Assembly: GCA_028287105.1 (NCBI GenBank)
Contig: JAQBQH010000073.1
Coordinates: 1,963 to 65,962, forward strand
Reading direction: 5' to 3'
Length of the DNA: 64,000 bases
Source: Myxococcales bacterium
Lineage (GTDB): Bacteria > Myxococcota_A > Polyangia > Palsa-1104
Positions 1-55,596 of this stretch are shown here, piece after piece (positions within the stretch are counted from its first letter, which is position 1; each line of letters starts with the position of its first letter). A program made the translations under genes and the position numbers. The notes beneath the pieces are model-generated. The model made no database searches, was not told the origin of the DNA, and saw only the letters and a list, made by a program, of their open reading frames with translations.

Positions 1-2
1 TC

Positions 3-287
3 GCGCATCTGTTCAGCCGCTTCTACCATGCGACCGGCGACGCGGGCTTCGCCGAAGTGGCCCGCTTCTGGTATGGGCGTGCGTTGCGGTTCCGAATACC
101 GGGCAGCGGCCTGGCCGGCTTCCTCGCGCGCAACCCAACGCCTGACGGCGCAATGGCGTGGGTGCCGTCGTCTGGCTTCCTGACTGGAGTGGTCGGCATC
201 GGGCTCGGCCTGATCTCTGGCATCGCCCCAATCCTACCGGAATGGGATCGGGTACTGCTCTGCGCAATTCCGGCGCGGTCGTAGAAC
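3..287 (+). CDS. 3' fragment (C-terminus) of a possible LanC-like / lanthionine-synthetase-C-like domain protein; 5' end lies outside the window.
   Basis: The open frame runs from the window edge to a stop at 285-287. Its C-terminal residues (...FYHATGDAGFAEVARFWYGRAL...PSSGFLTGVVGIGLGLISG...) resemble the terminal GxxG-rich repeats of LanC-like alpha-toroid domains. The Zn-ligand Cys/His are absent, as in class III/IV cyclase domains. The call rests only on this weak motif resemblance. Confidence 0.25.
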
Positions 288-295
288 GGTCAGCC

Positions 296-940
296 TCAGA
301 ACAACACGCCGCGCGCCGCCGCCTGCGGTAGAACTCGGTCGCGACATTGTCGTCTCCGAACACGAGCTGCGCGGTGCCTTTGGCGTGCGCGACCGCGGCC
401 GGATCCCGCCACGCGAGTCGCTCCGCAAGAGCGCTGCAGAAGCGCGCGTGCCCGGCGGCGAGGCGCAGAGTCAACTCGGCGTCGATCGCTCCCATCACGC
501 CGAGTGCAGCTGCAAGCCCGATAGATTCCGTCTCGTACGTTCCTGAGATGTGCCTGCGCCTCTCGGCGGCCATCAGCTCGGTGCGTCCTCGGAGTGCCGC
601 GATCGCGAAGCCGTTGCCGAGTGCCTTGCCGACGGTGGTGAGATCGGGCGTGAGACCAGATCCCTCGCGACGTCTACGGCTTTGTTGGCGACTGTCGAGA
701 AAAGTTCAAAAGCGACCCGAAGCTCGGCTCCAGATACGAGCGTCTCGGCGCCTATCTCGACAAGCGTCGATACCTCTGGACGGACGTTCTCTAGCCCGCC
801 GCCATGAGCGCACTGCGCGCTTTCGGTGCGTGAGAACGGCGTTAACAGCGCGGCGGAACTTTCGCCATCGCGGGCGCTCCGCACGACGGCACGGGTGTCA
901 GCGATGGCGACGTCATTCGGCCCTGCTCGCAGGATCATTT
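296..940 (-). pseudogene. Class-III (HemL / GSA-aminotransferase-like) PLP aminotransferase, C-terminal half only, broken by frameshifts and lacking its 5' half.
   Basis: Minus-strand translation of ~666-480 gives EGSGLTPDLTTVGKALGNGFAIAALRGRTELMAAERRRHISGTYETESIGLAAALGVMGAID. This matches the HemL active-site Lys block (TPDLTxxGKxxGGG ... GTxSGNP ... AAG). The reading frame breaks upstream (stop at ~706-708) and near ~340. The N-terminal ~230 aa expected at coordinates above 940 are missing, replaced by repeat copy 1. Confidence 0.5.
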
Positions 941-1068
941 CGAGTGCCGTCGGAAACCGAAGCATGACCAGCGGTTCCGTCGGTCAGGCACTCGAAATGA
1001 TCAATTCTCCCGTCTGAGCTGTCTTCATACGCGTAAGGTTCTCAGTTCGATTCTGAGAGGAGCCACCA
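938..1068 (+). repeat. Copy 1 of a ~130-bp structured repeat ending in a tRNA-like T-arm + acceptor 3' strand + CCA.
   Basis: The 3' part reads CTCAG-TTCGATT-CTGAG (5-bp stem, canonical T-loop) followed by AGGAGCC-A-CCA. The 5' part forms a hairpin: TTTCGAGTGCC (938-948) pairs with GGCACTCGAAA (987-997). The element is ~85-90% identical to copies 2 and 3, with a variable ~18-nt central segment. Positions 1081-1123 carry a degenerate inverted copy of the repeat's first 24 nt. Confidence 0.8.
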
Positions 1069-1192
1069 GTACTCGGTAGATCGGTTTCCGTTCGGCATAC
1101 GAAACGGCACTCGAAATCATCACGGTCCGGCATTGTCACGCAGTCCGAAAAATCTGCGCTCGCCGTCCGGGCACGACGGCATAATCGCCGTC

Positions 1193-3427
1193 ATGCGTTC
1201 TCCAATGGTCGCCTTCACGATCGCGACCTTGTTCTGGCTCGGCTGCTCGCACCACGACATCGAATCGCACGACGCGTCCGACCTGGCCGCCATCCCCGAC
1301 GACGGCGGCGCCGATGTCGATTTCGGCAATGCTGACCTGGCGACGCCTCGCCAGTTGTCGTTCTCGCTGCGCGCAGCGCGCAGCTGGCCGATGGAGGGCA
1401 ACGCGGCCTGCGTTCGCCTCGGTGACCTCGACGGTGACGGGAAGATCGACATCGTCCTCGCGAACTACCAGTCGCGCGTCACGGTGCTGCACAACGAAGG
1501 CGGCGGCAAGTTCGCCAAGCCGGTGCACTACACCGTATCGTCGGGTACGCAAGCGGTCGCGCTCGGCGACTTCAACCACGACGGCAAGCTCGACGTCGTC
1601 GCCTCGGGTTTCGGCGGACCGACCAACCTGGTGAGCGTGCTCCTCAACAAGGGTGACGGCACGCTCGACGCGGCCGTCGACTACGCCATCGGCGACAACG
1701 GCGCCAATCCGTACGCGCTCGTCACCGGCGACCTCGACGGCAACGGCAGCGTCGACATCGCTGTCGCCAACCAGAGCGCCGGCAACCTCGGAATCCTCCT
1801 CAACAAGGGCGACGGCACGTTCGGCACCGCCACCAACGTCGCCGCCGGCGCGAGCCCTTCGGACATCGCGGCCGGTGACGTCGACGGCGACGGCAATATC
1901 GATCTCGCAGTGGCCAACGATGGCGATGGCACTGTCAGCGTCTTCCTCAACAGCGGCGGCGGCTCGTTCGCGCCGGCGGTGAATTACGCCGCAGCCGCCG
2001 GTCCCTCCGGCGTGGCGCTCGCCGACGTCGATGGGGACGGCGCGCTCGATCTCGTCACCGCCAACGACAGCGGCAGCGTCAGCGTCTTGCACAACCAGGG
2101 CAACGGCACCTTCGCCGCCGCGGCGACCCAGATGGTGCCAGGCGGGCACACGGCGCTCGCGGTCGGCAACGTCGTCGGTGACGCGCGCCCAGACGTCGTC
2201 GCCGTCGGGCCAGGCGGCGCCGCCGTGCTCGAGCGAGGCGCCATGGCGTTCGGCGTCGCCCTCGAGGCTGCGGGCGCGTCGCCGCGATCGGTCGCGCTCG
2301 CTGACCTCGACGGAGATGGCAAGCTCGACGCCGCCGTAGCCAACTACGACAGCTCGGACGTGAGCGTCTTCTTGTCCGACGGGCTCCGGCTCGTCGGAGC
2401 GGCCCAGGAGAGCTGGACCATCCCGGCCGGCGGCGCCCCGTTCGGCGTGGCGCTGCTCGACGTCGACGGCGATGGCTACCTCGATCTCGCTGCGCCCGAC
2501 GAAGGCAACGGCGCAGTGCTCGTCATGCACAACAAGGGCGACGGCACGTTCGACACGCCGCAGAGCTTCGCGGTCGGCTCGGCTCCGATCTCGATCACCG
2601 CCGGCGACGTCACCGGCGACGGCAAACCGGATCTGATCGTCGGCAGCGACGCCGCCGTGCGCGCCTACGTCCTCGTCAACGACGGCCACGGAGGCTTCAC
2701 CGCGGCGACCGCCTATCGCGGAGAGGCGTGCGCGATCCGCATCGACGACCTCAACGGCGACAAGCTCAACGACTTCGTCGTCGCCGACTGCCACACCGGC
2801 GGCGTCAGCGTCTACCTCAGCCTCGGTGGCGGCGCGTTCCAACCCGAGCGCTACTACTCGACGGCGAGCTCGCCGCAGACGATGGCCCTCGGCGACGTCG
2901 ACGGCGACGGCAAGCCGGACGTGGTCGTGGCGACGTACGAGCTGCTCGGCGGCCCGAGCCAGGTCGCCGTGCTGCACAACAACGGCGACGGCACGTTCGG
3001 CGCGCCGACTGCCTACGCGACCGGCAAGGATCCAGTCGCGATCGTCGTCGTCGACCTCGACGGCGATGGCTGGCGCGACATCGCGACCGTCGATCTCGTC
3101 AACGGTTACGACGATTCGCTGAGCCTGGTCATGAACAAGGGCGACGGCACGTTCGCGGCGCCGGTCAGCATTTCCGGGCTGGCCTCGCCAAAGGCGCTCG
3201 CGGCGGCGGATTTCGTCGGAGACGGTCGCATCGATCTCGCGGCGACGCGCTCTGGTGGGATCGACATCCTGCTCAACGCGGGCAAGGGAGCGTTCGCGCC
3301 CGCCGTGTCCTATAGCGCGGGCAAGTCGAACGCGATCGCGATCGGGGACGTCGACGGCGACCACCTTGCCGACCTGGTCGCCGCGAACTCTATCAGCGCC
3401 GCTCTGCTCCGCAACACGAGCCACTAG
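1193..3427 (+). CDS. FG-GAP / VCBS (integrin-alpha-like) repeat lipoprotein.
   Basis: More than ten tandem repeats of the D-x-D/N-G-D-G-x-x-D-(I/L) Ca-binding signature (DLDGDGKIDIVLAN, DFNHDGKLDVVAS and others). N-terminal signal with lipobox FWLGC. Strong GC3 bias. The TTG at 1133 is the ORF-track start, but ATG 1193 gives a cleaner signal peptide. The antisense 762-aa ORF is a shadow. Confidence 0.85.
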   Translation: MRSPMVAFTIATLFWLGCSHHDIESHDASDLAAIPDDGGADVDFGNADLATPRQLSFSLRAARSWPMEGNAACVRLGDLDGDGKIDIVLANYQSRVTVLHNEGGGKFAKPVHYTVSSGTQAVALGDFNHDGKLDVVASGFGGPTNLVSVLLNKGDGTLDAAVDYAIGDNGANPYALVTGDLDGNGSVDIAVANQSAGNLGILLNKGDGTFGTATNVAAGASPSDIAAGDVDGDGNIDLAVANDGDGTVSVFLNSGGGSFAPAVNYAAAAGPSGVALADVDGDGALDLVTANDSGSVSVLHNQGNGTFAAAATQMVPGGHTALAVGNVVGDARPDVVAVGPGGAAVLERGAMAFGVALEAAGASPRSVALADLDGDGKLDAAVANYDSSDVSVFLSDGLRLVGAAQESWTIPAGGAPFGVALLDVDGDGYLDLAAPDEGNGAVLVMHNKGDGTFDTPQSFAVGSAPISITAGDVTGDGKPDLIVGSDAAVRAYVLVNDGHGGFTAATAYRGEACAIRIDDLNGDKLNDFVVADCHTGGVSVYLSLGGGAFQPERYYSTASSPQTMALGDVDGDGKPDVVVATYELLGGPSQVAVLHNNGDGTFGAPTAYATGKDPVAIVVVDLDGDGWRDIATVDLVNGYDDSLSLVMNKGDGTFAAPVSISGLASPKALAAADFVGDGRIDLAATRSGGIDILLNAGKGAFAPAVSYSAGKSNAIAIGDVDGDHLADLVAANSISAALLRNTSH

Positions 3428-3459
3428 ACGTCGCGCGGCGCGTGCTACGGTCGTCGACC

Positions 3460-4494
3460 ATGGTGGCCACTAGACGCCTCGACTGCATCGCGCTGACGCT
3501 GCTTGCCCTCGCCGGCCCCGCGGCCGCGGACCCGCCGCAGCGGCCGGACGCGCGCGGCAAGGGCGTGGTCAAGGAGCGGCTCTTTCACTCGGACGCGCTC
3601 GGCGTCGACAAGCGCTATCAGGTCTATCTGCCTGCCGGCTACGATCAATCGAACACGCGATACCCGGTCATCTACCTCTTGCACGGGCTCGGTGGCGACG
3701 AGACGAACTGGGCAAAACAGGGCGCGCTCGCCGAGACCGCCGACGCGATGGCGCTCGCCGCCGTCGTGGTCATGCCCGACGGGGACGACGGCTGGTACGC
3801 GAACTGGGCCTCGCCCAAGATGGATTACGAAACGTGCCTCAAAGGGAGCCGCGGCTTCGGTTTCGAGACGGACATGCACACCTACTGCGTCAAGACGGCA
3901 AACTACGAGGACTACATCGTCAAGGATCTCGTGGCGCACGTCGACGCGACCTATCGAACGGTCCCCGAGCGGCGCGCGCGCGCGATCGGCGGGCTGTCGA
4001 TGGGCGGCTACGGCGCGCTGGCTCTCGGCCTCCGGCATGGCGATCTGTTCGCGGCGGTCTTCTCGCACTCGGGCGTCGATTCGCTGTTCTACAAGGGGCC
4101 GCACCCGTACGACGCGACGAAGGTGGAGATTGTCGACAACGCGTCCGTGCCGGCGCACTGGGGCGAGAACACCGGGGCGATTGGCGCCCTGGTGCGGACG
4201 GTCTTCGGCGCCGACCTCGCGAACTGGGAGGCGCACGATCCGGCGACGCTGGCGGCGAAGCTTCACGACGGCGACGTAGCGCTCTATCTCGACGTCGGCA
4301 CCGAGGACGACTTCGGCCTCGACGCGCAGGCGCATCACCTCGACTCGGTGCTCACCAAGGCCGGCGTGACGCACACGTTCTTCGCCGGCCCGGGACGGCA
4401 CAGCTTCTCGTTCTGGCGCGATCGTCTCGACGACAGCCTCGGCTTCTGCGCGGCGACGTTCAAGGGTGGTGCGCGGTCGCGCGTCAAGCGCTGA
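3460..4494 (+). CDS. Secreted esterase of the esterase D / S-formylglutathione hydrolase family (alpha/beta hydrolase).
   Basis: Signal peptide MVATRRLDCIALTLLALAGPAAA. Motifs YLLHGLGGDETNW and GLSMGGYGAL (GxSxG nucleophile elbow). ATG 3460 is preferred over GTG 3442. Confidence 0.8.
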   Translation: MVATRRLDCIALTLLALAGPAAADPPQRPDARGKGVVKERLFHSDALGVDKRYQVYLPAGYDQSNTRYPVIYLLHGLGGDETNWAKQGALAETADAMALAAVVVMPDGDDGWYANWASPKMDYETCLKGSRGFGFETDMHTYCVKTANYEDYIVKDLVAHVDATYRTVPERRARAIGGLSMGGYGALALGLRHGDLFAAVFSHSGVDSLFYKGPHPYDATKVEIVDNASVPAHWGENTGAIGALVRTVFGADLANWEAHDPATLAAKLHDGDVALYLDVGTEDDFGLDAQAHHLDSVLTKAGVTHTFFAGPGRHSFSFWRDRLDDSLGFCAATFKGGARSRVKR

Positions 4495-4509
4495 GCGTAC
4501 GCGCGGCGA

Positions 4510-6231
4510 CTACTTGAAGCGGTTGACCTGGCCGCTGAAGCCGACCAGCAGCGCCTCGCCATCCTTACCGACCCAGACCCCGACCATCGCCTGATTATTG
4601 GCGATGGGGCGCGAGGTCCAGGTGCCGCTGCCGTCTGAGTGAAGCACCTGGTTGCCGAGCGCGCCGACGGCGTAGAGGTCGAGCGTGGAGCCGCCCGGCA
4701 CGACGCGCCCGGCGACCGCGACCAGGTTGGACGTGACGCCGCCGGCCGTCTCGTGGCCGCAGCTCCAGGCGGTGCCCGTGGCGGTGCAGTGAAAGATGCC
4801 GACCGTGCCGGCGCCGGCATCGCCGACGACCCAGACGTTGTTGGCGTCGGACATCCAGCAGCCGCGGAGCGAGCCGGTGAAGGCGCCGAAGGGGTTGGGC
4901 ACCACGCTCAGCATGGCGCCGGTGGCGTCGGTGGCGAACAGCTGCGCATTGTCGGCCGCCCCGGGGCTGTCGCCACCGACGGCGACGACGCGCATGCCGG
5001 CGCCACAGACGGCGTTGAACGCGTGCGCTGCCGCCGCCGCGAGGACGTTGCTCCAGGTGCCGGCGGCGCTGCGCACGCCGACGGTCTTGCTGCTCAGTGT
5101 GGCGTACACGACGCTGCTGTCGCGCGCCCACAGGCCGGTGACGTTGCCGGTCAACGGCGAGTTGGGCAGCGTCTCCGCGGTCCAGCTCTGGCTGCCGTTG
5201 CTGAACGAGATGATCCCGTTCTGGCCACCGACCCAGATGTGCTGCGCATCGCTGCCGGTGACCGCGTACGTGACGGTGCCGAGCGGGTTGGTGCCCTGGA
5301 CCCATCGCTGCCAGTTGCCGCTGGCGTCGCCACGAAATACGGGGGGCGCGGTAGTGTCGTTGGCGGCGACGTAATAGTCGCCCGTGCCGGTGCCCCACAC
5401 GGCGTTGAGGCTCGGCGGCGGCGTCTGATTCATGTTGATGAACTCGCCCGACCAGGCCGGCATGCCGACGCCGGTGAACCTCAAGCTGGCGGTCTCGCCG
5501 TCGTTGAACTGCGCATCGAGCGTCATCATCAGACTGCCGCTCTTGTCGGGGACGAACTGGAATGAGAGCAAGCAGCTGGCGCCGGCCGCGAGCGAGATCG
5601 TGGCGCCCATTCCGTTGCCGGCGTCGAGGGCGAAGCAGGTGGTCATGCCCTCGAGCTGCCAGGCGTTGCCGTCGCCGGTCGGCATGGGCATGTTGGTGAG
5701 GTTGACGGTCTGCGTGGTGTTGTTGGTCAGCTTGACCGCGTGGATCTGGCCGAGCGAGCCGCGCGCGGTCTGCCCGAAGTCGGTGCTGCTCGGGTAGAAG
5801 CTGACCACGCCGGCGGGCGGCCCGTCGCTGCCGCCGCCGTTGGCCATGTCGAGATCGCCGCCACCAACGATGGCGCTGTCGAGGTGGAAGGTGAAGCTGG
5901 AGTGGCCGCCGCCGGTCAGCGGCACCGACTGCACGCCGCTCGTTGCGCGCACCGCGCCACCGGCGAGCCCGTCGACGGTGATCTGCGCGGGCGAGGTGAT
6001 GCCCTGCGGCAGCGCCAGCGCCACGCGCACCGGCAGGGTGATCGTGCCGCCCGGCGTCGAGCTCATCGGCGCCGGCTGCCCGGCGACGGTGATGCGCAAC
6101 GAGTCGATCCCCGTGACGTTGCCCTCGACGCGGGCGCTGACGCAGGTGCCGCCGACGCCGGCGCAGGGATCGGCCGCGGCGCAGCCGGTCAACACGACGG
6201 CGGCCAGGAGCGTGCCAGCGATGGCGCGCAT
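4510..6231 (-). CDS. Large secreted lipoprotein with Ig-like N-terminal region and BNR / Ycf48-like beta-propeller repeats.
   Basis: 573 aa. Signal and lipobox (LTGCAA). Repeated G-x-x-W-S and W-x-G motifs in the C-terminal half. High GC3. No enzymatic motif recognised. Confidence 0.6.
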   Translation of the reverse strand: MRAIAGTLLAAVVLTGCAAADPCAGVGGTCVSARVEGNVTGIDSLRITVAGQPAPMSSTPGGTITLPVRVALALPQGITSPAQITVDGLAGGAVRATSGVQSVPLTGGGHSSFTFHLDSAIVGGGDLDMANGGGSDGPPAGVVSFYPSSTDFGQTARGSLGQIHAVKLTNNTTQTVNLTNMPMPTGDGNAWQLEGMTTCFALDAGNGMGATISLAAGASCLLSFQFVPDKSGSLMMTLDAQFNDGETASLRFTGVGMPAWSGEFINMNQTPPPSLNAVWGTGTGDYYVAANDTTAPPVFRGDASGNWQRWVQGTNPLGTVTYAVTGSDAQHIWVGGQNGIISFSNGSQSWTAETLPNSPLTGNVTGLWARDSSVVYATLSSKTVGVRSAAGTWSNVLAAAAAHAFNAVCGAGMRVVAVGGDSPGAADNAQLFATDATGAMLSVVPNPFGAFTGSLRGCWMSDANNVWVVGDAGAGTVGIFHCTATGTAWSCGHETAGGVTSNLVAVAGRVVPGGSTLDLYAVGALGNQVLHSDGSGTWTSRPIANNQAMVGVWVGKDGEALLVGFSGQVNRFK

Positions 6232-6995
6232 TAGAAGCGCACCATCGGCAGGGTCTTGGTGGAATCGGCGCTGGTCGCCAGCACCACGCCGACGACGACA
6301 CCGGCGATCACCACCGCGCCGACGCCGCCGATGACGCCCCAGAACCAGCCGCGCCGGGTGATCGGCTTGCGGCTCGGAGCCGAGGCGGTCAGGTCACCGC
6401 GCATGCTGCCGGCGGCCGTGGCCGTGGCCGTGGCACTGGGCGCCGGCGTCGTCGCTGCGGTCGGCGTCGCCGTCGGCGGGTTCGTGGCCGGCGCCGTCGT
6501 TGCCACCGTCGGCGTCGCCGCGGCGGGCGGCGTCGTCACGGCCGGCTTGGGCTCACGCGGCGGCGTCGCGCTGTCGCCGGGTCGCGCGCGGCTGGGGTCG
6601 GCCTCGATGGTGCCGACCGGCGGCTGGCTGGCCGTCTTGGACTGCTGGTCGATCAGCTTGTTGAGCTGCGCGATGTGGCGCTCGACCTCGGCGCGGTTGC
6701 TCGCCTTCGGCTCCATGCGCAGGTACTTTTGGTAGAAGCCGAGCGCCTTCTCCGGCCGCTTCGACTGGCGGTAAGCCTGCGCGATGTTGTAGAGGAACTG
6801 CGGCACCGGCTTGATGAGGAAGCCGGCCTGCCACTCCTCGATCGCCTTGTCCCACTCCTCGAGCTGGAAGTGGGCCATGCCGGTCTCGTAGTGCAGCTTG
6901 GCCTGCTGGGCGCGATCGTCGACGGGGGCCGGCGTTTGCGCCCACGCGGGACTGACCACCAACATGAGGCAGACCAGAGCGGATACACGAGTCAT
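6231..6995 (-). CDS. TPR-repeat periplasmic protein with Pro/Thr/Ala-rich linker and C-terminal membrane anchor.
   Basis: Signal peptide MTRVSALVCLMLVVSPAWA. TPR-like W-x-x-A-x-x-Y helices (WDKAIEEWQAGF, YNIAQAYRQSKRPEKALGFYQKYL). PT-rich low-complexity region and a terminal hydrophobic helix. Its stop overlaps the start of the downstream gene by 1 nt. Confidence 0.7.
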   Translation of the reverse strand: MTRVSALVCLMLVVSPAWAQTPAPVDDRAQQAKLHYETGMAHFQLEEWDKAIEEWQAGFLIKPVPQFLYNIAQAYRQSKRPEKALGFYQKYLRMEPKASNRAEVERHIAQLNKLIDQQSKTASQPPVGTIEADPSRARPGDSATPPREPKPAVTTPPAAATPTVATTAPATNPPTATPTAATTPAPSATATATAAGSMRGDLTASAPSRKPITRRGWFWGVIGGVGAVVIAGVVVGVVLATSADSTKTLPMVRF

Positions 6996-7339
6996 CGTCT
7001 GGCATTTTATGCCACCCTGACGAGCACGTAAAGTGTTTGCGCAGTCGGTGCGCGCCGCCGTCGCTCACGCCAGCCGGCAGGCGTCCACCTCGCGTTCAAC
7101 AGCCCTGAGGGGTCACCGAGCGAGTCTCGAGTCGCCCCAGCGCTCCGATGCCCGCGAAGCCCGAAGGCAGCCCGCACAAGTAGCGGCCTCTAGCGACACT
7201 CGCACCCCGATGATCGACCTTGTCGCTGTTCGCGCCCTGCGCAGCGCACCTCGATGCCCCCCGGAAGCTTCGTCGCTTCGCCGCGCCGCGAACCACAAAG
7301 GCGACTCGATCAATTCTTGCGAGCGGATTCTTTAGATCG

Positions 7340-7469
7340 CTTCGAGTGCCGCCGGAAACTGAAGCATGACCAGCGGTTCCGTCGTTCAGGCACACGAAAC
7401 GATCAATTCCTCGTCGACGGTGCGCTCATACGCGTAAGGTTCTCAGTTCGATTCTGAGAGGAGCCACCA
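7340..7469 (+). repeat. Copy 2 of the tRNA-like-ended structured repeat.
   Basis: CTTCGAGTGCCGCCGGAAACTGAAGCATGACCAGCGGTTCCG...ATACGCGTAAGGTTCTCAGTTCGATTCTGAGAGGAGCCACCA. The variable centre is CTCGTCGACGGTGCGCTC. Confidence 0.8.
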
Positions 7470-7569
7470 GTAGTTACGAGGCTCGAAGTTCCAAAGAACA
7501 AGGAATGGAACAAGGAAATGGCGCCACCTCGGACGGTGATACCGCACCGGCTCGGATGGCGCCGCTCCA

Positions 7570-7836
7570 CTAGCCGGCCGAAGGGGGCGCGTCGCCGCCG
7601 CCTGGGGCCTTGGCTTCCTTGGAGCCGACGACGATAAGGTTCATGCCCACCTGCACCGAAACGTTCTTGCCGTCGACAGTGAGCTGGGCCTTGCCATTGA
7701 CGTACCAGCCGAAGCTGCCGGTAGAGAACTCGCGCGGCTCGGCGACCATGGGAAACCCGCCCACGTCGATCTTGAGCGGCTCCGCCTTGGCGAGGAAGTC
7801 GGCGCGTGAAATGGGACATATCGTCTTGGGCGGCAT
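7570..7836 (-). CDS. Small hypothetical protein (~88 aa).
   Basis: Strong GC3 bias over MPPKTICPISRADFLAKAEPLKIDVGGFPMVAEPREFSTGSFGWYVNGKAQLTVDGKNVSVQVGMNLIVVGSKE. No recognised family and no clear RBS. Confidence 0.4.
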   Translation of the reverse strand: MPPKTICPISRADFLAKAEPLKIDVGGFPMVAEPREFSTGSFGWYVNGKAQLTVDGKNVSVQVGMNLIVVGSKEAKAPGGGDAPPSAG

Positions 7837-8405
7837 ACCCGGCGTATAGCACAAACTGAAGGTGGGACGGACGACGGACCATTGATCTGACAGCCAGCGC
7901 GTAGACGGCGCATATTCGGTCGAAGCACGCTGCGTTGAAGTCCTTGATGTTCAACCTGCGCTTCATCAAATGGGCGTCGTACGTCGGCTTGGTGTTCGGG
8001 CGGTGAATGAGCGGTCAGCCGGTCGAGGAGTCGTGGTCAATACTGCAGGGCGATAAGGCCGGCAGCCCGAGGATGGGAACCACCGCGTCACGGCAGCGCG
8101 TATCCGCGGCGAGAAGACGATCCGAGGGTACGTGCCGATAAAAACGAAGCGCAGCTCGACTCGATGATATCGGACGTGACTGACAGCTGACGATGCTACT
8201 CCGATGTCACCGCGACGAAGAAGCGCGATGAGCGTCGCTTCGAGCTGCGCACCGACGTCAGGCACGACTTCTGCGACTCGAACATCGACACTTGCAAGTC
8301 GCGCAAAGCGGAGCAGAAGCGCCTTGGTGAACATGGACCGCATCGGGCGCGAATCGCCGAGGAAGAGGCGCTCTTGCGGAGCATTGTGAAGCGTCTAGGA
8401 GGATC

Positions 8406-9059
8406 GTGATGGGGCGCGACGCGTCCGAGCCACAGCGCTGTGAGTCGTTGTTCCGTAGCCTGATCGATCACGAGGGTGATGCGGACGCGAACGCCAATGA
8501 TCTGCTGAAGTGTTTCTTTCGCGGGTACCCGCTCGACAACCTCCGCGAGCTTTTGCGAAGCGACGATCCCGAGGTTGCCAAAGCCGGCGTGTGGATCGCT
8601 TCTGAACTGGGAGCGCGCGCGAAGGTGCTGCTCGACGACGTCGTTCCCATTCTGGGCAACCTTCTTCCCTATGCTCGGTTCTTCGCCATCGACGCGATAC
8701 TCGGCGCCAACGGCGACGACGCCGAGGCGGTCGCCAGTGTCATCCGACTCGTTGACGACGCCGACAGCGGCGTTCGCTGGAAGGTCGTCCAGTTCCTGAG
8801 CCGCGCCTCGCGGCAGCAGCTCGAAGCGGCAGCATCGCTCCTCGAAGATCCGCTCGCATCTGCGCTGCGCCGCTTCCTCGACGACAACGAGATCAAGGTG
8901 CTGCTCGAAAGCGAGTCCGGCGCCTTACGAAGGCTGGCGCTTGCCGCTGCGATTCGCGCCGCGCCGACCAACCTCGGCGCGCTGCGCGCGGTGGCGGCGT
9001 CGACGGACGAAGAGGTCAGCGCGTGGGCCGTCGAAGAGCTTGAACAGCGCGGCAATTGA
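8406..9059 (+). CDS. HEAT/ARM-like alpha-helical repeat protein in a lower-GC segment; function unknown.
   Basis: RBS AGGAGG 6 nt upstream of ATG. 217 aa of regular ~35-40-aa helical repeats (DDPEVAKAGVWIASELG..., ADSGVRWKVVQFLSRAS...). GC3 is moderate and clearly lower than in the flanking genes. Confidence 0.5.
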   Translation: MMGRDASEPQRCESLFRSLIDHEGDADANANDLLKCFFRGYPLDNLRELLRSDDPEVAKAGVWIASELGARAKVLLDDVVPILGNLLPYARFFAIDAILGANGDDAEAVASVIRLVDDADSGVRWKVVQFLSRASRQQLEAAASLLEDPLASALRRFLDDNEIKVLLESESGALRRLALAAAIRAAPTNLGALRAVAASTDEEVSAWAVEELEQRGN

Positions 9060-9457
9060 CTCCGACGGTTGTGCCTCGCTCGAGAACAAGGGCGACCACA
9101 AGCCGGCCAAGCCCGAGGGCAAGAATGTCCAGAAGCCAAGCCGAGCCCAAGACGACTTCGGCGAGGTTTTCATGTTCAGCCGCAAGAGCGCGCAGCGCGG
9201 TCGTAGCCGCCCATCTCAGACGTTCGTGAATAACTCATCACTACGCGTAAGGTGGCTGCCGCCGCCCGAAGCGCGCGCTTCCTCTCCAACCAATCGACCT
9301 GTCATCCCGAAAGGGCGCGCCGTCGCGACTCCTGAAAAGTTCAATTTGAAGCGGTCAAAAGAGTTGCAAGCGTATGCCGACGCGATCATCAGTACGATCC
9401 TGGAGCTCGAGTGAACGGTGGCAGCGATTGAGCGAACGCGAGGATTGGGCTGCAAGC

Positions 9458-10114
9458 ATGGCTGGTATTCACCACCGGTGCCGCGGTGGGGCGACTGCGC
9501 GTGTGAAGAGCGTGCTGCGACTGGTCTCCATATGGCTCGCGCTGCTCGCGGCGGACGGTGTGGCGCTGGCCGACGCGTCGACTCCGCAAGGAAGGCCGCA
9601 GCCGATGTCAGTCGAGCTTCACGCGTTGCTGGGTCCGTTTCGCTCTCCCGAAGACTATTTCGGCTGCCAACGGTTCGATTGTTTCTCCGGATGGATCGTG
9701 ACGGTCCGTGCGAATAAGCCGTCGGCGGCAGGCAGACCATACGGCGGCCAATACGTTAGTGTGCAGGCGCCGGCCGGATGGTTCGTTGACGCCAAAGCGA
9801 TCGACACTCATCTTTGCGCGCAGGATGTCGACTTGCCGGCGCGAAAATCGGCGGCGCACCTGTGGACCGTGCAGTTCTACGAATGCGACGTCGATCCGCC
9901 AGATGGCACATTCCTGGGAAAGCTCGCAGGTGTCGTGCTCTGCGATTTGTCATCGACGAAACCGTACTGCAGCGACTTCGTGCCGCTCGGCGGCTGGGAT
10001 GCGCACTTTGCCGACGTCGGATATGCGAAGCGGGCGCCGACGAAACGCATCGGCGACGACATCGTCGTCGTCGGCCAGCGATTTCGACTCGGTCGCCGAC
10101 TGCCCGCGCCGTAG
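9458..10114 (+). CDS. Secreted hypothetical protein (218 aa) with 8 Cys.
   Basis: Internal ATG gives the signal peptide MAGIHHRCRGGATARVKSVLRLVSIWLALLAADGVALA. The upstream part of the longer ORF (9374) is probably not translated. Sits in the lower-GC region. Confidence 0.45.
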   Translation: MAGIHHRCRGGATARVKSVLRLVSIWLALLAADGVALADASTPQGRPQPMSVELHALLGPFRSPEDYFGCQRFDCFSGWIVTVRANKPSAAGRPYGGQYVSVQAPAGWFVDAKAIDTHLCAQDVDLPARKSAAHLWTVQFYECDVDPPDGTFLGKLAGVVLCDLSSTKPYCSDFVPLGGWDAHFADVGYAKRAPTKRIGDDIVVVGQRFRLGRRLPAP

Positions 10115-10646
10115 TCGGCTGCGAGTAGGGATCCTCGACCGCTGCGGCTTCATGGCACGTTCCAACCGTGAGTGAGTTCAGTCGTGGAACGTGATGCCGC
10201 AGCCGGGGCAGTTGATCGGATAAGTCCTGCGCTAGGGGTAGCGATTGCAACGGGGGCAACGCCGCGGGGAGCATGATCGCGATCAGCGGTAGCTGGTGGC
10301 GAAAGCGGACCGTGGTCTCGAGATGGTGTTCGGGACCTGAACCTGCCAACCGGACTACAAAGGAAATTTCGCGATCGGCTCGTCACAGACGCAATCAAGG
10401 ATCGAAGCTCGCTCGACGGAAGATCCCTCGCGGTGGCGCGGCCGTCTTCGAATGTGAGCCGCACGACGGCAACCTCGCGATCCGGCAGGTCTGTCGACGG
10501 TTCGCGAGATGTACGAGCAGGTGCGACGCGCGACAGATTGCCGCAGGCCTCGGGACCGGCGCGTTTCGTACGATCGGCAGAGTTGAACGCTGGTACAGTG
10601 GATCGCGTTTGCTGGTGGGCATCCCGAACAGCACCGGAGGACCTGA

Positions 10647-11156
10647 ATGCGCTGTGCGATCTTGCTGATGGGAGCATGGGGAACCGTAGTTGCGGCCGGC
10701 TGTGGCGGCGCAGAATCAAAGTGCGGTCCAGGAACGGTCCTCGAGGGCAACGAGTGCGTTGTTGTGCCGTCGTGCGGCCCAGGAACGGCCCTCGAGGGCG
10801 ACAAGTGCGTTGTTGTGCCGTCGTGCGGCCCAGGAACGGAACTCGTGAGCGGTGAGTGTGTTGTTTCACAAGATCCGCTGGTGGGCGTCTGGATGGCGTC
10901 GCGCAGCGACGACCCGAGCTCTCAAGCCCAGTGCACCTTCGCGCCCGACCACACATGGGCGTGTACCTTGCTGCAGAACGGGTGGCCGTCGACATGGTCT
11001 CAAATCCAACCCAATAGTTACTTTCTTAACTACTCAAACAATGAAGGGTGTAACGGCAGCACAACCTTCTCCGACGACAACAGCACCGTGTCGATACTCA
11101 TTTCTGGGAACAGTATCTTCTCAGGGATGACGCTCTCAATGAGCCGCGTGCACTAG
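10647..11156 (+). CDS. Cys-repeat lipoprotein.
   Basis: RBS GGAGGA. Lipobox VVAAGC. Three tandem CGPGT-x-LEG-x-x-CVVVPS repeats encoded by three ~57-bp DNA repeats. Confidence 0.55.
   Translation: MRCAILLMGAWGTVVAAGCGGAESKCGPGTVLEGNECVVVPSCGPGTALEGDKCVVVPSCGPGTELVSGECVVSQDPLVGVWMASRSDDPSSQAQCTFAPDHTWACTLLQNGWPSTWSQIQPNSYFLNYSNNEGCNGSTTFSDDNSTVSILISGNSIFSGMTLSMSRVH
10717..10870 (+). repeat. Three tandem ~57-bp coding repeats inside the lipoprotein gene.
   Basis: GTGCGGTCCAGGAACGGTCCTCGAGGGCAACGAGTGCGTTGTTGTGCCGTC and two near-identical units follow head-to-tail. Confidence 0.7.
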
Positions 11157-11232
11157 ACGCAGTCGCCGCGCGGGGGTCCGCCCGCATAAGCAGATGACGA
11201 GGGCGCTTCGAACCGCACGATGCGAGATGTCG

Positions 11233-11362
11233 TTTCGAGTACCGCCGGAAACCGACGCCTGACCAGCGGTTCCGCCGTTCAGGTACTCGAAATGATCAAT
11301 TCTCCGTCGACGGTGCTCTCATACGCGTAAGGTTCTCAGTTCGATTCTGAGAGGAGCCTCCA
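11233..11362 (+). repeat. Copy 3 of the tRNA-like-ended structured repeat; here it ends ...GAGGAGCC-T-CCA.
   Basis: TTTCGAGTACC (11233-11243) pairs with GGTACTCGAAA (11282-11292). T-arm CTCAG-TTCGATT-CTGAG. It overlaps the last ~22 codons and the stop of the minus-strand mobA-like gene. Confidence 0.8.
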
Positions 11363-11943
11363 GGACTTAGCTGCTCGTAGTCGTCGGGGGTGTCGATGTC
11401 GAAGGCACCTTCGGGGAAGGGCAGCAGCACGGTCATGTCCCGGTGGCGCTGGATGATCGCCTTGGCTCCCGAATGCGGTGCCATTGCGCGCAGCTCGGCG
11501 AAGAGCGCGCGCGGGAAGAGCGCGGGCACGCCAACCACGTCGTCGTCGTAGCGCGAGGCAACGAGGCTGCCCGGGTGCTGCCGATGCGCCTCGACCAGCG
11601 CAGCCACGTGCTCGCTCGTCAGGAGCGGCTGATCGCAGACGGCGAGCAGGACCGCGTCAGGAGGTGGCTGCGCCGGCAACGCGCGCATGCCGGCGCCAAT
11701 CGAGCTGCCCATTCCGTGGCGCCAGTCGACGTTCTCCACGAAGTCGACGCCGTCGGCGTTTGCGTGCGCGCGGATCAGCGCGGCGTGCGCGCCGAGGACG
11801 ACGAGCACGCGCCGCACCGGCGCTGCCGAGACGGCGACGATCGCCCGCCCGAGCAGCGTCTGGCCGCGAAACGGAAGCAGTTGCTTGGGACGGCCGAGCC
11901 GCGTCGACGCGCCGGCCGCGAGGATGATCGCGTCCGTAATCAA
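11299..11943 (-). CDS. Molybdenum cofactor nucleotidyltransferase (MobA / MocA-like, NTP_transf_3).
   Basis: LITDAIILAAGASTRLGRPKQLLPFRGQTLLGRAIVAV... matches the MobA/MocA N-terminal nucleotide-binding motif. Probable TTG start at ~11943, forming a TTGA overlap with the xdhC stop. The C-terminal ~22 aa (GGSSQNRTENLTRMRAPSTEN) and the stop are encoded by repeat copy 3. Confidence 0.7.
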
Positions 11944-13067
11944 GGCGCCGCCAGCGCCTGGGGGCGCGGCTGCGTTTCGCCCAACGACGCTCCCGTGCGC
12001 CGCGCCAGCACCGACTGGATCTCGGCCACGATCGAAAGCGCGATCTCGACCGGCCCCTCGGCCCCGAGATCGAGCCCGATCGGACCGTGCAGCCGCGAGA
12101 GCCGCGCCGGCGTGGGCCGCACGCCCGCACGTCCCATGTCGTCGAGCAGCCGGTCGGTCCGCTTGCGTGGACCGAGGATGCCGACGTACGAAGCTGCCGA
12201 CGCGAGCGCACGCTTCAAGACGGCGAGATCGCGATCGTAGTTGTGGCTCATGATGACCACCGCGGTGCGCGCGTCGAGCGGTACACGGTCGAGCTCCGCC
12301 GCGGGGACCACCAGGATCCGATCCGCCGGGCGAAAGCGCTCGCGTGCGGCGAGCGAAGCGCGGCCCTCCACGACGGTCACGTGCCACCCGAGCCGCTTGG
12401 CCAGCTCCACCAGCGGAAGCACGTCGTAGCCGCTGCCGAAGATGACGAGCGGCCGCGCCGGCAGCAGCACCTCGATGAACAGCTCGATCGTCCCCGCCCC
12501 GTAAATGCGATGGCTCGACTGCTCCGCCGCCAGCGCCGCGCGTGCGTCCGCCACCACCGACGCCGCCAGCTCGCGGTCGGTCAGCGTGCAGCCGACGATC
12601 CCGTTCGCGCGCAAGAGCAGGCGTTCGCCGATGCGCGCGCCCGCGTCCGGCGTCGTGCGGATGACGGTCGCCATCACGCCCGCTTCGCGAGCCGCCTGGC
12701 ATCGTCGGACGAACGCGAGCGGGTTGGCGTCGCTCGCCGTCAGCCGCTCGAGCAATACGTCGAGCGTGCCGTTGCAGCCGAGGCCGAAGCCCCAGCGGAC
12801 CTCTTCGTCGTCGTCGGTGGTCGAGTCGTACCGGATCATCGCCGGGTCGCCGCCGGCGGTGCGCCACCAGGCTTTGCGCAAGAGATCGCCTTCGAGGCAG
12901 CCGCCGCTGATGGCGCCGGCGAGCCAGCGATCCTCGGTCATGAGCATGCGCGCGCCCGGCCGCCGATAGGTCGATCCCGAGACCTTGACCAGCGTCGCGA
13001 GCACCGCCTCGCCACCGCTCTCCTCGACGGGCCCCCACGCGCGCACCAGCTGCTGCAGCTCGTTCAT
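11940..13067 (-). CDS. xdhC: XdhC / CoxI / PaoD-family molybdoenzyme maturation chaperone.
   Basis: 375 aa with the two-domain XdhC architecture (MNELQQLVRAWGPVEESGGEAVLATLVKVSGSTYRRPGARM... and the Rossmann-like C-terminal half LVIFGSGYDVLPLVELAKRLGWHVTVVEGR). Confidence 0.8.
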   Translation of the reverse strand: MNELQQLVRAWGPVEESGGEAVLATLVKVSGSTYRRPGARMLMTEDRWLAGAISGGCLEGDLLRKAWWRTAGGDPAMIRYDSTTDDDEEVRWGFGLGCNGTLDVLLERLTASDANPLAFVRRCQAAREAGVMATVIRTTPDAGARIGERLLLRANGIVGCTLTDRELAASVVADARAALAAEQSSHRIYGAGTIELFIEVLLPARPLVIFGSGYDVLPLVELAKRLGWHVTVVEGRASLAARERFRPADRILVVPAAELDRVPLDARTAVVIMSHNYDRDLAVLKRALASAASYVGILGPRKRTDRLLDDMGRAGVRPTPARLSRLHGPIGLDLGAEGPVEIALSIVAEIQSVLARRTGASLGETQPRPQALAAP

Positions 13068-52440: not shown

Positions 52441-53505
52441 TCAGCCGATCGGGGGGCAGCCGTAGATGGCGGTGACCATCGTGATGACGCCCTTCTGCAG
52501 CGCGTCGCAGGCCATGCCGTAGAAGTTGATCGACAGGTTGTTCGGACCGTAGTCCCACCCGTTCATGTGGGTCTTGTCGCGCGGAATGATCATGCCGTTG
52601 CCGTCGATCTCGACGAGGTCGGGATTGGCGGGCGCCTTCTGCAGGGCGTACGAGCAGGAGACGAGCTGGCCGGTGACCTTGTTGAGCACGTTGACGAGGT
52701 CGGTGCTCGTCGACGCTTCGTAATACGGCTTCTGTCCGGCCGTCATGTTCGGGACGCCGCCGGCGTTGGCCATCGCGGTCAGCGTCGCGTCGGCGCCGGT
52801 ATTGGCGATGCCGACGACGAAGACCTTGATGCCGTTCGACACCGCGTTGGTGATGGCGGCGACGGTGGTGTTCTGGTCGTCGTTGCAGGTCGGCTCGCCG
52901 TCGGTGGCGACGAGGAGGTAGTGGGTGTGACCGTTGGCCAGGCCCTTCAAGTACGTGACGGCGGACTTGATGGCCTCGCCGGTCGGCGTGCCGCCGCCGG
53001 GCATGGCGTTGGTGAGCGCCGTCGAGATGGCGCCGGCGCTGGTCGCCGAAATGGCGACGTCAGGCATGGTCGGGACGGAGCAGGTGTTGAACCCGCCGCC
53101 GTTCGCGTCGGGGAACATGAGCAGGCCCCACTCGACCGTGGAGACCGCGCTGACGACCTGCTTGAGGGCGGTCGTCATCGACGTCCACTTCGACGGCGTC
53201 GTGTTGCCGCCGCTGGCGTCCATCGACATCGAGCCGGAGCGATCCTGGATGAGGAGGAGGTCGGGCGTGCCGCCCTTGGTGAGCATGAAGTCCTGAACGC
53301 CGCAGTTGTTGCCGGTGCCGCCGCCGCCGCCGCCTGAGCCGCCGCCACCGGAGCCGCCCGTGCCGCCGTTGCCGCCGGTTCCCGAGCCACCGCCGCCGCC
53401 GGTTCCGCCGGAGCCGCCCGTGCCGCCGTGGTTGATGTTGGGACTTCCGCAGCCGGCGACGACGGCCGTTGCGAGCGCGAACATAATCGAGGCGAAAGAC
53501 TTCAT
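52441..53505 (-). CDS. von Willebrand factor type A (vWA) domain lipoprotein with N-terminal poly-Gly/Ser/Thr linker.
   Basis: RBS GGAGG. Lipobox VVAGCG. MIDAS motif LIQDRSGSM with downstream T and D residues. Confidence 0.7.
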   Translation of the reverse strand: MKSFASIMFALATAVVAGCGSPNINHGGTGGSGGTGGGGGSGTGGNGGTGGSGGGGSGGGGGGTGNNCGVQDFMLTKGGTPDLLLIQDRSGSMSMDASGGNTTPSKWTSMTTALKQVVSAVSTVEWGLLMFPDANGGGFNTCSVPTMPDVAISATSAGAISTALTNAMPGGGTPTGEAIKSAVTYLKGLANGHTHYLLVATDGEPTCNDDQNTTVAAITNAVSNGIKVFVVGIANTGADATLTAMANAGGVPNMTAGQKPYYEASTSTDLVNVLNKVTGQLVSCSYALQKAPANPDLVEIDGNGMIIPRDKTHMNGWDYGPNNLSINFYGMACDALQKGVITMVTAIYGCPPIG

Positions 53506-55237: not shown

Positions 55238-55596
55238 GCCCGAAGATTGTCGAAAAGCCCTGGGGTAACGAGCTGATTTGGGCGGTGACCGACCGCTACG
55301 TCGGTAAGATCCTGCATATCAAGAAGGGGCACTCGCTGTCGCTCCAGTACCATAACCAGAAAGACGAAACGGTTATGGTTCTGACCGGCAAAATGGAGTT
55401 TGTTCATTATCGCGAAGGCGAGGAGCCGAGCTCCACGGTCCTCTTGCCGCGCCAGCCCTTCCACGTCACGCCGCTCTTGCGCCATCGCATGATCGCGCTC
55501 GAGGACACCGACGTCGTCGAGGTATCGACGACGGAGCTCGATGACGTGGTCCGCCTGGAGGACAAGTACGGCCGCGAGGGAACCTCGAAGGCGTAG
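55234..55596 (+). CDS. Cupin-domain protein (120 aa).
   Basis: ATGA overlap with the aldehyde dehydrogenase stop. Cupin motifs (HSLSLQYHNQKDETVMVLTGKMEF; PLLRHRMIAL). Noticeably lower GC. Confidence 0.6.
   Translation: MSPKIVEKPWGNELIWAVTDRYVGKILHIKKGHSLSLQYHNQKDETVMVLTGKMEFVHYREGEEPSSTVLLPRQPFHVTPLLRHRMIALEDTDVVEVSTTELDDVVRLEDKYGREGTSKA

Follow-up and report, generated by a model that had tools for sequence, protein, structure and literature searches.

Lambda-type (heterobivalent) tyrosine integrases, such as the P4/P22-like enzymes and that of mycobacteriophage L5, target the anticodon-loop sublocation of tRNA genes. The families of tRNA-targeting integrases were reportedly classified by Williams in 2002. 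Tandem accretion of elements is known from the ICESt/CIME (cis-mobilizable element) system of Streptococcus. In Dehalococcoides, tandem islands bounded by 20-bp repeats lie downstream of ssrA, and 15 islands without integration modules are discussed as CIMEs (PMC3146451). The tycheposons of Prochlorococcus integrate at tRNAs, stack, and leave partial tRNAs and remnants (bioRxiv 10.1101/2020.12.28.424599). The only myxobacterial site-specific tools in a review of the subject (PMC11610982) are the integrases of Mx8 and Mx9, two Myxococcus phages. Here we analyse a 64-kb stretch of contig JAQBQH010000073.1 from a Myxococcales bacterium (Polyangia), hereafter referred to as the window, which carries three repeats fused to the 3' half of a tRNA. 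These repeats are, very probably, attachment-site junctions of temperate-phage-like elements serially integrated in one upstream tRNA-Met(CAU) gene. The mechanism is already known, as phages and islands at tRNA genes leave 3'-half repeats, and no new RNA or repeat class is involved. What is new is an uncultured phage integrase family, hosted by Polyangia, with marginal database matches and an invariant lysine residue. All junction coordinates are window positions; loci of relatives and phage contigs are labelled L0xx, and members of the integrase family P00xx.

The original prediction described three same-strand copies of a ~130-bp unit, ~85-90% identical to each other. The copies indeed lie on the plus strand (Table 1), and any two of them are 87-89% identical over ~140 nt. 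Exactly three occurrences of the 28-nt T-arm/acceptor core GGTTCTCAGTTCGATTCTGAGAGGAGCC are found in the window (at 1037, 7438 and 11331, always on the plus strand) and none in 100 shuffled sequences, and a sensitive blastn search of the whole 64 kb with seven junction queries revealed no fourth copy. The 3' ~45 nt are the same in all copies, except for the discriminator base, which is T rather than A in copy 3 (11359). The unit itself is longer than predicted. In copies 1 and 2 conservation runs ~50 nt beyond the CCA end, into two direct repeats (1094-1104 and 1106-1116; 7496-7505 and 7508-7517). The sequences upstream and downstream of the core are referred to as the P and P' arms, respectively. 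In the aligned copies, an inverted pair of 11-nt motifs (TTTCGAGTGCC ... GGCACTCGAAA) encloses the box AAGCATGACCAG in the P arm; a core-proximal segment of ~25 nt and two direct motif copies located ~30 nt past the CCA end are also shared.

The origin of the core was revealed by relatives. The 28-mer was searched in one genome per species (185,579 species genomes), and 12 loci were found, all in metagenome-assembled genomes (MAGs) of Polyangia/Myxococcales. Looking for an intact tRNA sharing the 3' 45 nt of the repeats had been suggested along with the original prediction, and such a gene is present in nine of the 12 loci (L002, L003, L005 and L007-L012). It is a 75-77-nt tRNA-Met(CAU) gene, GGCTCCTTAGCTCAAYTGGTTAGAGCAGACGCTTCATACGCGTAAGGTTCTCAGTTCGATTCTGAGAGGAGCCACCA, preceded by a TTGACA box. 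The 3' half of this tRNA and the repeat core have identical sequences, the identity extending from positions 31-33, in the anticodon loop, to just past the CCA end. In copy 1, for instance, the core includes the anticodon loop, the 3' strand of the anticodon stem, the variable loop, the T arm, the 3' acceptor strand, the discriminator base and CCA. Because the invariant 3' end is the 3' half of tRNA-Met, the 5' strand GGCTCCT, which is absent from the repeats, corresponds to the other half of the gene. The repeats were correctly described as not being tRNA genes: only tRNA positions 31/33-76 are present, so that no complete cloverleaf is found, and ARAGORN detects 0 tRNAs and 0 tmRNAs in the window. 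A search of Rfam yielded nothing at the gathering threshold in the window; for copy 1 at E<=1, the sole match is a chance hairpin resemblance to a microRNA model. Two further readings were rejected. A 3' fragment of a tmRNA, either one-piece or two-piece (permuted), does not fit, as AGGAGCC has a G at position 70 and no G3:U70 pair, and as the intact counterpart is a tRNA-Met(CAU) gene and no tmRNA is found. Pairing of P-arm CTCC with acceptor-strand GGAG, which would give a mini-cloverleaf, is not conserved, copy 2 and L004b having a shifted CCTC.

Five more copies of the P arm joined to the tRNA half were identified in these MAGs (L001, L004, L006, L007 and L012), 83-94% identical to the window copies. 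A metagenome scan with a pattern combining the P arm and the core retrieved only two near-identical decayed copies (L016 and L017).

The whole P-core-P' arrangement is found in phages, next to an integrase gene. In the viral contig L013, the P hairpin, the core and the P' arm are followed by a convergent gene encoding a 381-aa tyrosine integrase, and then by phage exonuclease and SbcC-like genes. The same site lies within ~0.1-0.6 kb of the integrase stop codon in L018, L019/L020, L021 and L023. The L013 integrase matches PF00589 (E 5e-7, 30 bits versus a cut-off of 27.1) and phrog_1 (E 4e-26), and members of the family score 30-38 bits against PF00589, versus the same cut-off. The protein has 79 homologue clusters, typically of ~365 aa. 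The contigs of six of these clusters are phage genomes, encoding ERF or RecT, ParB, a PDDEXK nuclease, dUTPase, SSB, amidase/CHAP lysins and baseplate proteins.

An alignment of 22 integrases (alignment A3) shows no variation at residues R231, K256, H322, H348 and Y358. In box II, the usual H-x-x-R is replaced by H-x-L-K in 22/22 sequences (K325 in P0001), and an invariant lysine in place of the second catalytic arginine is unusual for tyrosine recombinases. The N-terminal domain features the conserved pattern MPRR..E.ARVLGP...WR. The best match in PDB is IntI4, which is marginal (E 1e-4 over 60 residues), and scores against NCBIfam are far under the cut-offs. The integrase found no match by tblastn in 50,697 GenBank phage records, and the junction is likewise unmatched in GenBank phages. 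Two matches obtained by scanning viral sequences with CTCGAAATGATCAATTC (L014 and L015) were discarded as chance similarities in AT-rich contigs. One database entry annotated as an integrase, P0026 (415 aa), has a C-terminus extended by minus-strand read-through of the attachment-site (att) core.

Integrated, decayed and empty forms of the site were identified in the relatives. At the end of a lysogen in L022, the tRNA promoter region and an intact tRNA-Met are followed by the P' arm, a small gene, an intact integrase gene, and genes for RecT, YqaJ and DnaB. L010 features the tRNA and the P' arm, followed by an integrase gene truncated at the 5' end, which encodes the C-terminal 205 residues only. 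The P' arm of window copy 1 is 91% identical to that of L010, which makes up the spacer between the tRNA and the truncated integrase; the similarity reaches the point where the integrase stop codon lies. In L012, the tRNA and a P' arm are separated by 4.3 kb (61% GC) from a P arm plus core, beyond which lies a terminator-like native flank, thus forming an attL/attR pair. In L002, L005, L009 and L011, the sequence downstream of the tRNA is unrelated, corresponding to an unoccupied site. Synteny among MAGs is kept 5' of the tRNA, and is lost ~90 nt past its 3' end. The largest array is found in CAWFMP010000004.1 (2.4 Mb), where the tRNA maps at ~844.1 kb on the minus strand. At least five junctions follow this single tRNA on the same strand, at 842.8, 835.8, 833.0, 813.5 and 811.8 kb; each consists of a P arm, a core and a P' arm, and the one at 813.5 kb is decayed, with a mutated T stem. 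The intact tRNA-Met genes of the relatives, together with attP and lysogen attL sites beside a tyrosine integrase gene, thus bear out the suggestion that the repeats are attL/attR-type duplications of a tRNA 3' end produced by serial integration. Two 390-aa open reading frames (ORFs) located beside junctions in L004 and L006 had been suspected to encode integrases, and were rejected as a peroxidase-like protein and a PG-binding protein.

The arm motifs vary among elements in a coordinated manner. In L013, all four arm sites are GTTACTCGA, a 9-mer absent elsewhere in the 14 kb; in L019, all four are of the GAACAAGGAA type; GTACTAGGAAA and GAACCACGAAA occupy the same positions in L023 and L024, respectively. 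Between elements, motif types such as GGCACTCGAAA, GTTACTCGA and GAACAAGGAA therefore shift jointly at the four positions, and at least five arm specificities are found at fixed distances from one constant 45-bp core. Within the window, GGYACTCGAAA (<=1 mismatch) occurs seven times, always inside junctions, versus 1.5 occurrences expected. The 16-bp dyad of the P arm is kept by compensatory change, as 12/24 pairs differ on both sides among 13 copies, a value reached by 0/500 shuffles; in the window, G to A and C to T changes in the P arm of copy 3 are compensatory relative to copy 1. The two P' sites are unpaired and yet vary together with the hairpin arms, hence the conservation of the dyad is not evidence for an RNA. 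By their sequence, four co-varying sites at a fixed distance from the core have the look of the arm-type protein-binding sites of an attP.

Copy 1 and copy 2 can each be related to specific phage sites. In copy 1, the core-proximal segment CCCGTCTGAGCTGT has a match in the attP of phage contig L021. Copy 2 is of hybrid nature, combining a GGCAC-type P arm with a GAACAAGG-type P' arm containing two GAACAAGGAA sites 12 nt apart. Within the window, GAACAAGGAA is found only at these two sites, with 0.02 occurrences expected by chance. The layout of this P' arm, two sites and then a hairpin, is that of the attP in phage contig L019, and the DNA similarity ends at 7518. As its arms are of two specificities, copy 2 cannot be a copied unit and is the product of recombination between two different elements.

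The box AAGCATGACCAG in the loop of the P arm (window 962-973, 7364-7375 and 11257-11268) is near-constant even where the arm motifs differ wholly, as in L019; the box of copy 3 deviates slightly (ACGCCTGACCAG). This box may be a site for an accessory factor.

These architectures would be accounted for by repeated insertion at the same gene. An incoming element would carry an attP of ~200-220 bp, beside the 3' end of the gene for a ~365-aa tyrosine integrase and with a core corresponding to the tRNA 3' half. Recombination of attP with the tRNA gene would rebuild an intact tRNA at attL and displace the old 3' half to attR. The next element would enter the rebuilt tRNA, its P arm and core coming to abut the P' arm of the prior element, and a same-strand P-core-P' array would result. 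The catalytic domain of the integrase would recombine attP and attB inside the shared 45 bp; as identity starts at the anticodon loop, this is the probable place of the crossover. The 11-nt motifs are the putative arm-type sites (an inverted and a direct one in P, and a direct pair in P'), most probably bound by the N-terminal domain of the integrase, possibly together with an excision factor. These domain roles are proposed by reference to heterobivalent tyrosine integrases such as lambda Int. Sites bound by one integrase would be expected to change together within an element. Since the window blocks contain neither integrase nor phage genes, the elements they represent may be either deletion remnants or integrase-less cis-mobilizable islets, holding cargo-like or decayed genes. 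By analogy with the arrays in L007/L004/L006, L012 and L022, an intact tRNA-Met gene (GGCTCCTTAGCTCAA...CCA, plus strand) is expected upstream of the window.

The features of the window are listed in Table 1.

Table 1. Junctions, intervening blocks and genes in the first 12 kb of the window.
Feature	Coordinates	Strand	Description
Block 0	1-932		Decayed genes; cut by window start
Copy 1	933-1116	+	Complete repeat
Copy 1, P arm	933-1022	+	Inverted GGCACTCGAAA pair (938-948 minus, 987-997 plus) around box AAGCATGACCAG, then core-proximal CCCGTCTGAGCTGT
Copy 1, core	1023-1068	+	Positions 31-76 of Polyangia tRNA-Met(CAU)
Copy 1, P' arm	1069-1116	+	Two direct arm motifs, GGCATACGAAA (1094-1104) and GGCACTCGAAA (1106-1116)
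Block 1	1117-7334		6.2-kb islet without integrase; GC at third codon positions 0.89-0.94, host-like
FG-GAP lipoprotein	1193-3427 (1133-3427 in longer form)	+	744-764 aa, 13 FG-GAP/VCBS-type repeats, PF13517 E 1e-111
Esterase	3442-4494	+	Block 1
Secreted protein	4510-6231	-	Block 1; 573 aa, no Pfam match
TPR protein	6231-6995	-	Block 1
Copy 2	7335-7518	+	Hybrid repeat
Copy 2, P arm	7335-7425	+	GGCAC-type motifs at 7340-7350 (minus) and 7389-7399 (plus), one mismatch each
Copy 2, core	7426-7469	+	tRNA-Met 3' half, U33 to CCA
Copy 2, P' arm	7470-7563	+	GAACAAGGAA twice (7496-7505, 7508-7517), then hairpin 7520-7563
Block 2	7564-11229		3.7-kb islet, lower GC (~62%), without integrase
94-aa ORF	7570-7854	-	Block 2
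HEAT-repeat protein	8406-9059	+	Block 2
Cys-repeat ORF	10647-11156	+	Block 2; three in-frame 51-nt tandem repeats (10721-10873)
Copy 3	11230-11377	+	Repeat with shortened P' arm
Copy 3, P arm	11230-11318	+	Motifs GGTACTCGAAA at 11233-11243 (minus) and 11282-11292 (plus)
Copy 3, core	11319-11362	+	Discriminator A to T at 11359
Copy 3, P' remnant	11363-11377	+	~15 nt left, GGACTTAGCTGCTCG (L010: GGACTTAGCAGCTCG); fused to mobA-like 3' end
MobA-like nucleoside triphosphate (NTP) transferase	11296-11970	-	PF12804 E 3e-37; right-hand chromosomal flank of the array

Block 0 is probably the end of a further islet. A 5'-truncated aminotransferase gene had been noticed to the left of copy 1, and a class-III aminotransferase fragment (~453-657, minus strand) is indeed all that is left, spanning only profile positions 248-317 of PF00202. 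A weak LanC-like C-terminal fragment (3-284, plus strand, E 0.037) is also found, and both fragments feature a flat GC content across codon positions. In block 1, the left P' arm and the right P arm share the same arm type (GGCAC). The arms of block 2 are mismatched, the P' arm being of the GAACAAGG type (7496-7517) and the P arm of the GGTAC type (11233-11292); this block is thus not one coherent element and is probably composite. The right-hand end of the array had been described as a fusion of copy 3 to the mobA 3' end. The fusion is real, and the gene concerned encodes a molybdenum-cofactor NTP transferase, not a mobilisation protein; its neighbours are xdhC and a gene of the xanthine-dehydrogenase family. 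The MobA-like ORF runs through the P' remnant and the core of copy 3 and part of its P arm, up to a stop codon at 11296-11298, whereby the protein gains a 23-residue att-encoded tail (...SPGGSSQNRTENLTRMRAPSTEN). Both the reduction of the copy 3 P' arm to ~15 nt and this read-through indicate that the distal end of the array was removed by a deletion that extends into the mobA-like gene at its 3' end.

Traces of phage genes were searched in these blocks. Tblastn of the window with the 79 integrase family members gave only read-through artefacts over the att core. All the ORFs of four phage loci were also compared by tblastn with eight chromosomal loci and the window; apart from att regions, the sole match was the truncated integrase in L010. 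A PHROG search with eight window ORFs yielded a single weak hydrolase match and none in block 2. An alternate-frame integrase match at 7340-7762 was dropped, as the DNA similarity to L019 stops at 7518.

The Polyangia sites share several features with those of lambda-type systems. The attP is 200+ bp long, the core is the 3' part of a tRNA from the anticodon loop on, so that integration would regenerate the tRNA, repeated arm-type sites flank this core to the left and right, attP adjoins the integrase gene, and the displaced 3' half marks attR. In contrast to the lambda-type enzymes, however, the Polyangia integrases are not close to any characterised family, and the P arm holds an inverted arm-site pair forming the 16-bp dyad, the predicted target of the N-terminal domain. 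As in the Dehalococcoides ssrA islands and the ICESt/CIME system, a same-strand array follows a tRNA or tmRNA gene and is bounded by direct repeats of the 3' end of the gene, and many islands carry cargo only, without an integration module. Dehalococcoides islands rely on the serine integrase DsiB and a 20-bp repeat, whereas a tyrosine integrase, a 45-bp core and conserved arms of ~90 and ~50 bp are found here; moreover, the autonomous partners are phages rather than mobilizable islands. In block 1 of the window, in L012 and in the CAWFMP010000004.1 blocks, an integrase is absent and the flanking arms are intact; these blocks would be CIMEs if the integrase of a related element could mobilise them in trans.

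Tycheposons are likewise tyrosine-recombinase elements located at tRNA genes, where newer integrations push older ones further into the island. They differ from the Polyangia elements in host phylum, integrase family and target tRNA; here, autonomous elements carry tailed-phage gene sets, and the replication module typical of tycheposons was not seen. Mx8 and Mx9 are also temperate myxobacterial phages with tyrosine integrases and chromosomal attB sites, and the attP of Mx8 lies inside the int gene. In contrast to these phages of Myxococcus hosts, the Polyangia elements have an attP downstream of int and target tRNA-Met.

Several points weigh against serial phage integration as the source of the window array. 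No intact tRNA-Met gene is present in the window, and the anchor of the array is placed by analogy with the relatives. No integrase or phage-gene remnant is found in blocks 0-2, whose phage origin is putative. In every copy, the shared sequence has an abrupt limit at the outer P-arm edge, which is not the obvious outcome of a random decay of related prophages. The mismatched arms of block 2 require one more event, for instance the joining of two elements by an internal deletion, and the recombination activity of any member of the family is a prediction made from sequence. In addition, two orphan copies, located 675 nt apart on the opposite strand in L001 (CAWFMP010000004.1, 96-104 kb), lie 710 kb from the array. 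These orphans adjoin a DDE_5 insertion sequence (IS) that is 99% identical to the IS just past the last junction of the array (L006 1652-2942), and an inversion mediated by the IS, splitting the array, looks like a plausible explanation.

The same orphans, being far from the tRNA array, are what would be expected of a tRNA-derived repeat spread by transposition independently of site-specific integration, as in SINE (short interspersed element) or MITE (miniature inverted-repeat transposable element) families, one of the possibilities raised in the original prediction. The unit is short (~130-200 bp), has an inverted repeat inside and is present in several copies per genome. We regard this origin as very improbable. 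Every array copy is collinear with the tRNA, being located downstream of it on the same strand; the aligned copies have neither terminal inverted repeats at the unit ends nor target-site duplications; in phage genomes the unit is the attP beside the integrase; copies are few (three in 64 kb, and 12 loci in 185,579 species genomes); and the flanking IS points to a rearrangement of the L001 copies. Hardly any more credible is a family of small tRNA-like non-coding RNAs, made of the 5' hairpin, the T arm, the acceptor strand and CCA, which would be transcribed and possibly processed by RNase P or a CCA-adding enzyme. Copy 1 folds better than shuffled sequences (z = -4.1), and the compensatory changes in the dyad, a test of covariation that had been proposed at the outset and gave a positive result, could be taken as a sign of a conserved RNA stem. 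However, copies 2 and 3 fold no better than shuffles (z about -1.2), copy 1 has no promoter- or terminator-like site, a 5' acceptor strand is missing, neither ARAGORN nor Rfam finds anything, and the invariant part is simply the 3' half of tRNA-Met. The co-variation extends to the two unpaired P' sites, outside such an RNA, which fits recognition by a protein rather than RNA pairing. The 5' hairpin, first viewed as part of a structured RNA, is therefore better described as the P arm of an attachment site.

The blocks might alternatively form a working cassette system, in which cargo-only islets with complete P' and P arms are moved in trans by phage integrases, giving an integron-like array at tRNA-Met; the closest named concept is that of cis-mobilizable elements with accretion, and the interpretation of integrase-less islands as CIMEs has a precedent (PMC3146451). 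About a dozen chromosomal blocks were seen, including window blocks 1 and 2, blocks of 1.1, 6.8, 2.6 and 1.5 kb in CAWFMP010000004.1, the 4.3-kb block of L012 and a 0.5-kb block in L001; none has an intact integrase or phage gene in the parts covered, whereas every phage contig holds an integrase. The similarity among copies has exact limits, the outer P-arm edge on one side and a point just past the second P' site on the other, outside which the cargo is unrelated, and several blocks consist of one or a few genes, such as that of the PG_binding_1 protein between two L006 junctions. Moreover, P' and P arm types agree in window block 1, L012 and the first CAWFMP010000004.1 block, as needed for a coherent excisable unit. 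On the other hand, no block was met twice in different places or genomes, and there is no sign of movement; the arms of window block 2 are mismatched; and junctions are decaying, as evidenced by the mutated T stem in L006, the mutated T loop and lost P hairpin in L016/L017, and the changed discriminator and lost P' arm in copy 3. The sample is also small, consisting of about a dozen blocks, with 16 kb of the longest array outside it. On balance, such a system is unlikely, though clearly less so than a transposed repeat or an RNA family.

The comparison with integrons is instructive in this respect. As in cassette arrays, short cargo units without a recombinase have the same orientation and lie between structured imperfect palindromes read by a tyrosine recombinase. 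Unlike integrons, the array has a tRNA gene as its insertion point rather than a fixed intI/attI platform; its sites are not attC-like but resemble attP, combining arm motifs with a 45-bp core shared with the tRNA, and there is no evidence for single-stranded folded substrates; blocks often contain several genes with their own orientation and promoters. No integrase gene is found in or next to the window array, and the homology of the integrase to IntI is marginal. In its broadest form, the cassette hypothesis would make the Polyangia tRNA-Met a gene-capture platform, where islets of 0.5-7 kb with complete arms are shuffled in trans by the integrases of co-resident temperate phages, the arm type (GGCAC, GTTAC, GAACAAGG and others) setting which phage mobilises which islet. 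This version is slightly more doubtful still; if true, it would represent a functional analogue of the integron, with a heterobivalent phage integrase and a tRNA gene as its components.

Under the preferred explanation, that of serial integration at tRNA-Met, the attP, attB, attL and attR sites of temperate Polyangia phages, which form an uncultured family, are defined from sequence alone. Polyangia are relatives of Sorangium and natural-product producers, and the combination of a ~220-bp attP and a ~365-aa integrase acting at a conserved tRNA-Met is a candidate integration vector. With a constant core and varying arm specificities, the family provides a clean natural experiment in the co-evolution of arm sites. 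The locus is also a hot spot of genome plasticity, which gathers cargo islets devoid of an integrase and, in the window, has led to a changed 3' end in a molybdenum-cofactor gene.

Additional observations concern individual genes and repeats. Next after the P' arm of copy 1 comes the FG-GAP lipoprotein gene, in a position taken by the integrase gene in phages. The 51-nt repeats of the Cys-repeat ORF encode a 17-aa Cys-containing unit, CGPGTVLEGNECVVVPS, for which Pfam and PHROG searches gave no match. Minus-strand read-through of the att core at 11296-11377 gives the peptide ...GGSSQNRTENLTRM.... Far from the array, two tandem units of ~260 nt, 74% identical, are found at 56145-56667 and probably correspond to a repeated domain in a coding region. 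A long run of GCC/GCCGCC type with a 9-nt periodicity at 53290-53440 probably encodes a low-complexity region rich in Gly or Ala. Finally, the 53870-55584 region is ~71% identical to genes flanking tRNA-Met in L005 and L011.

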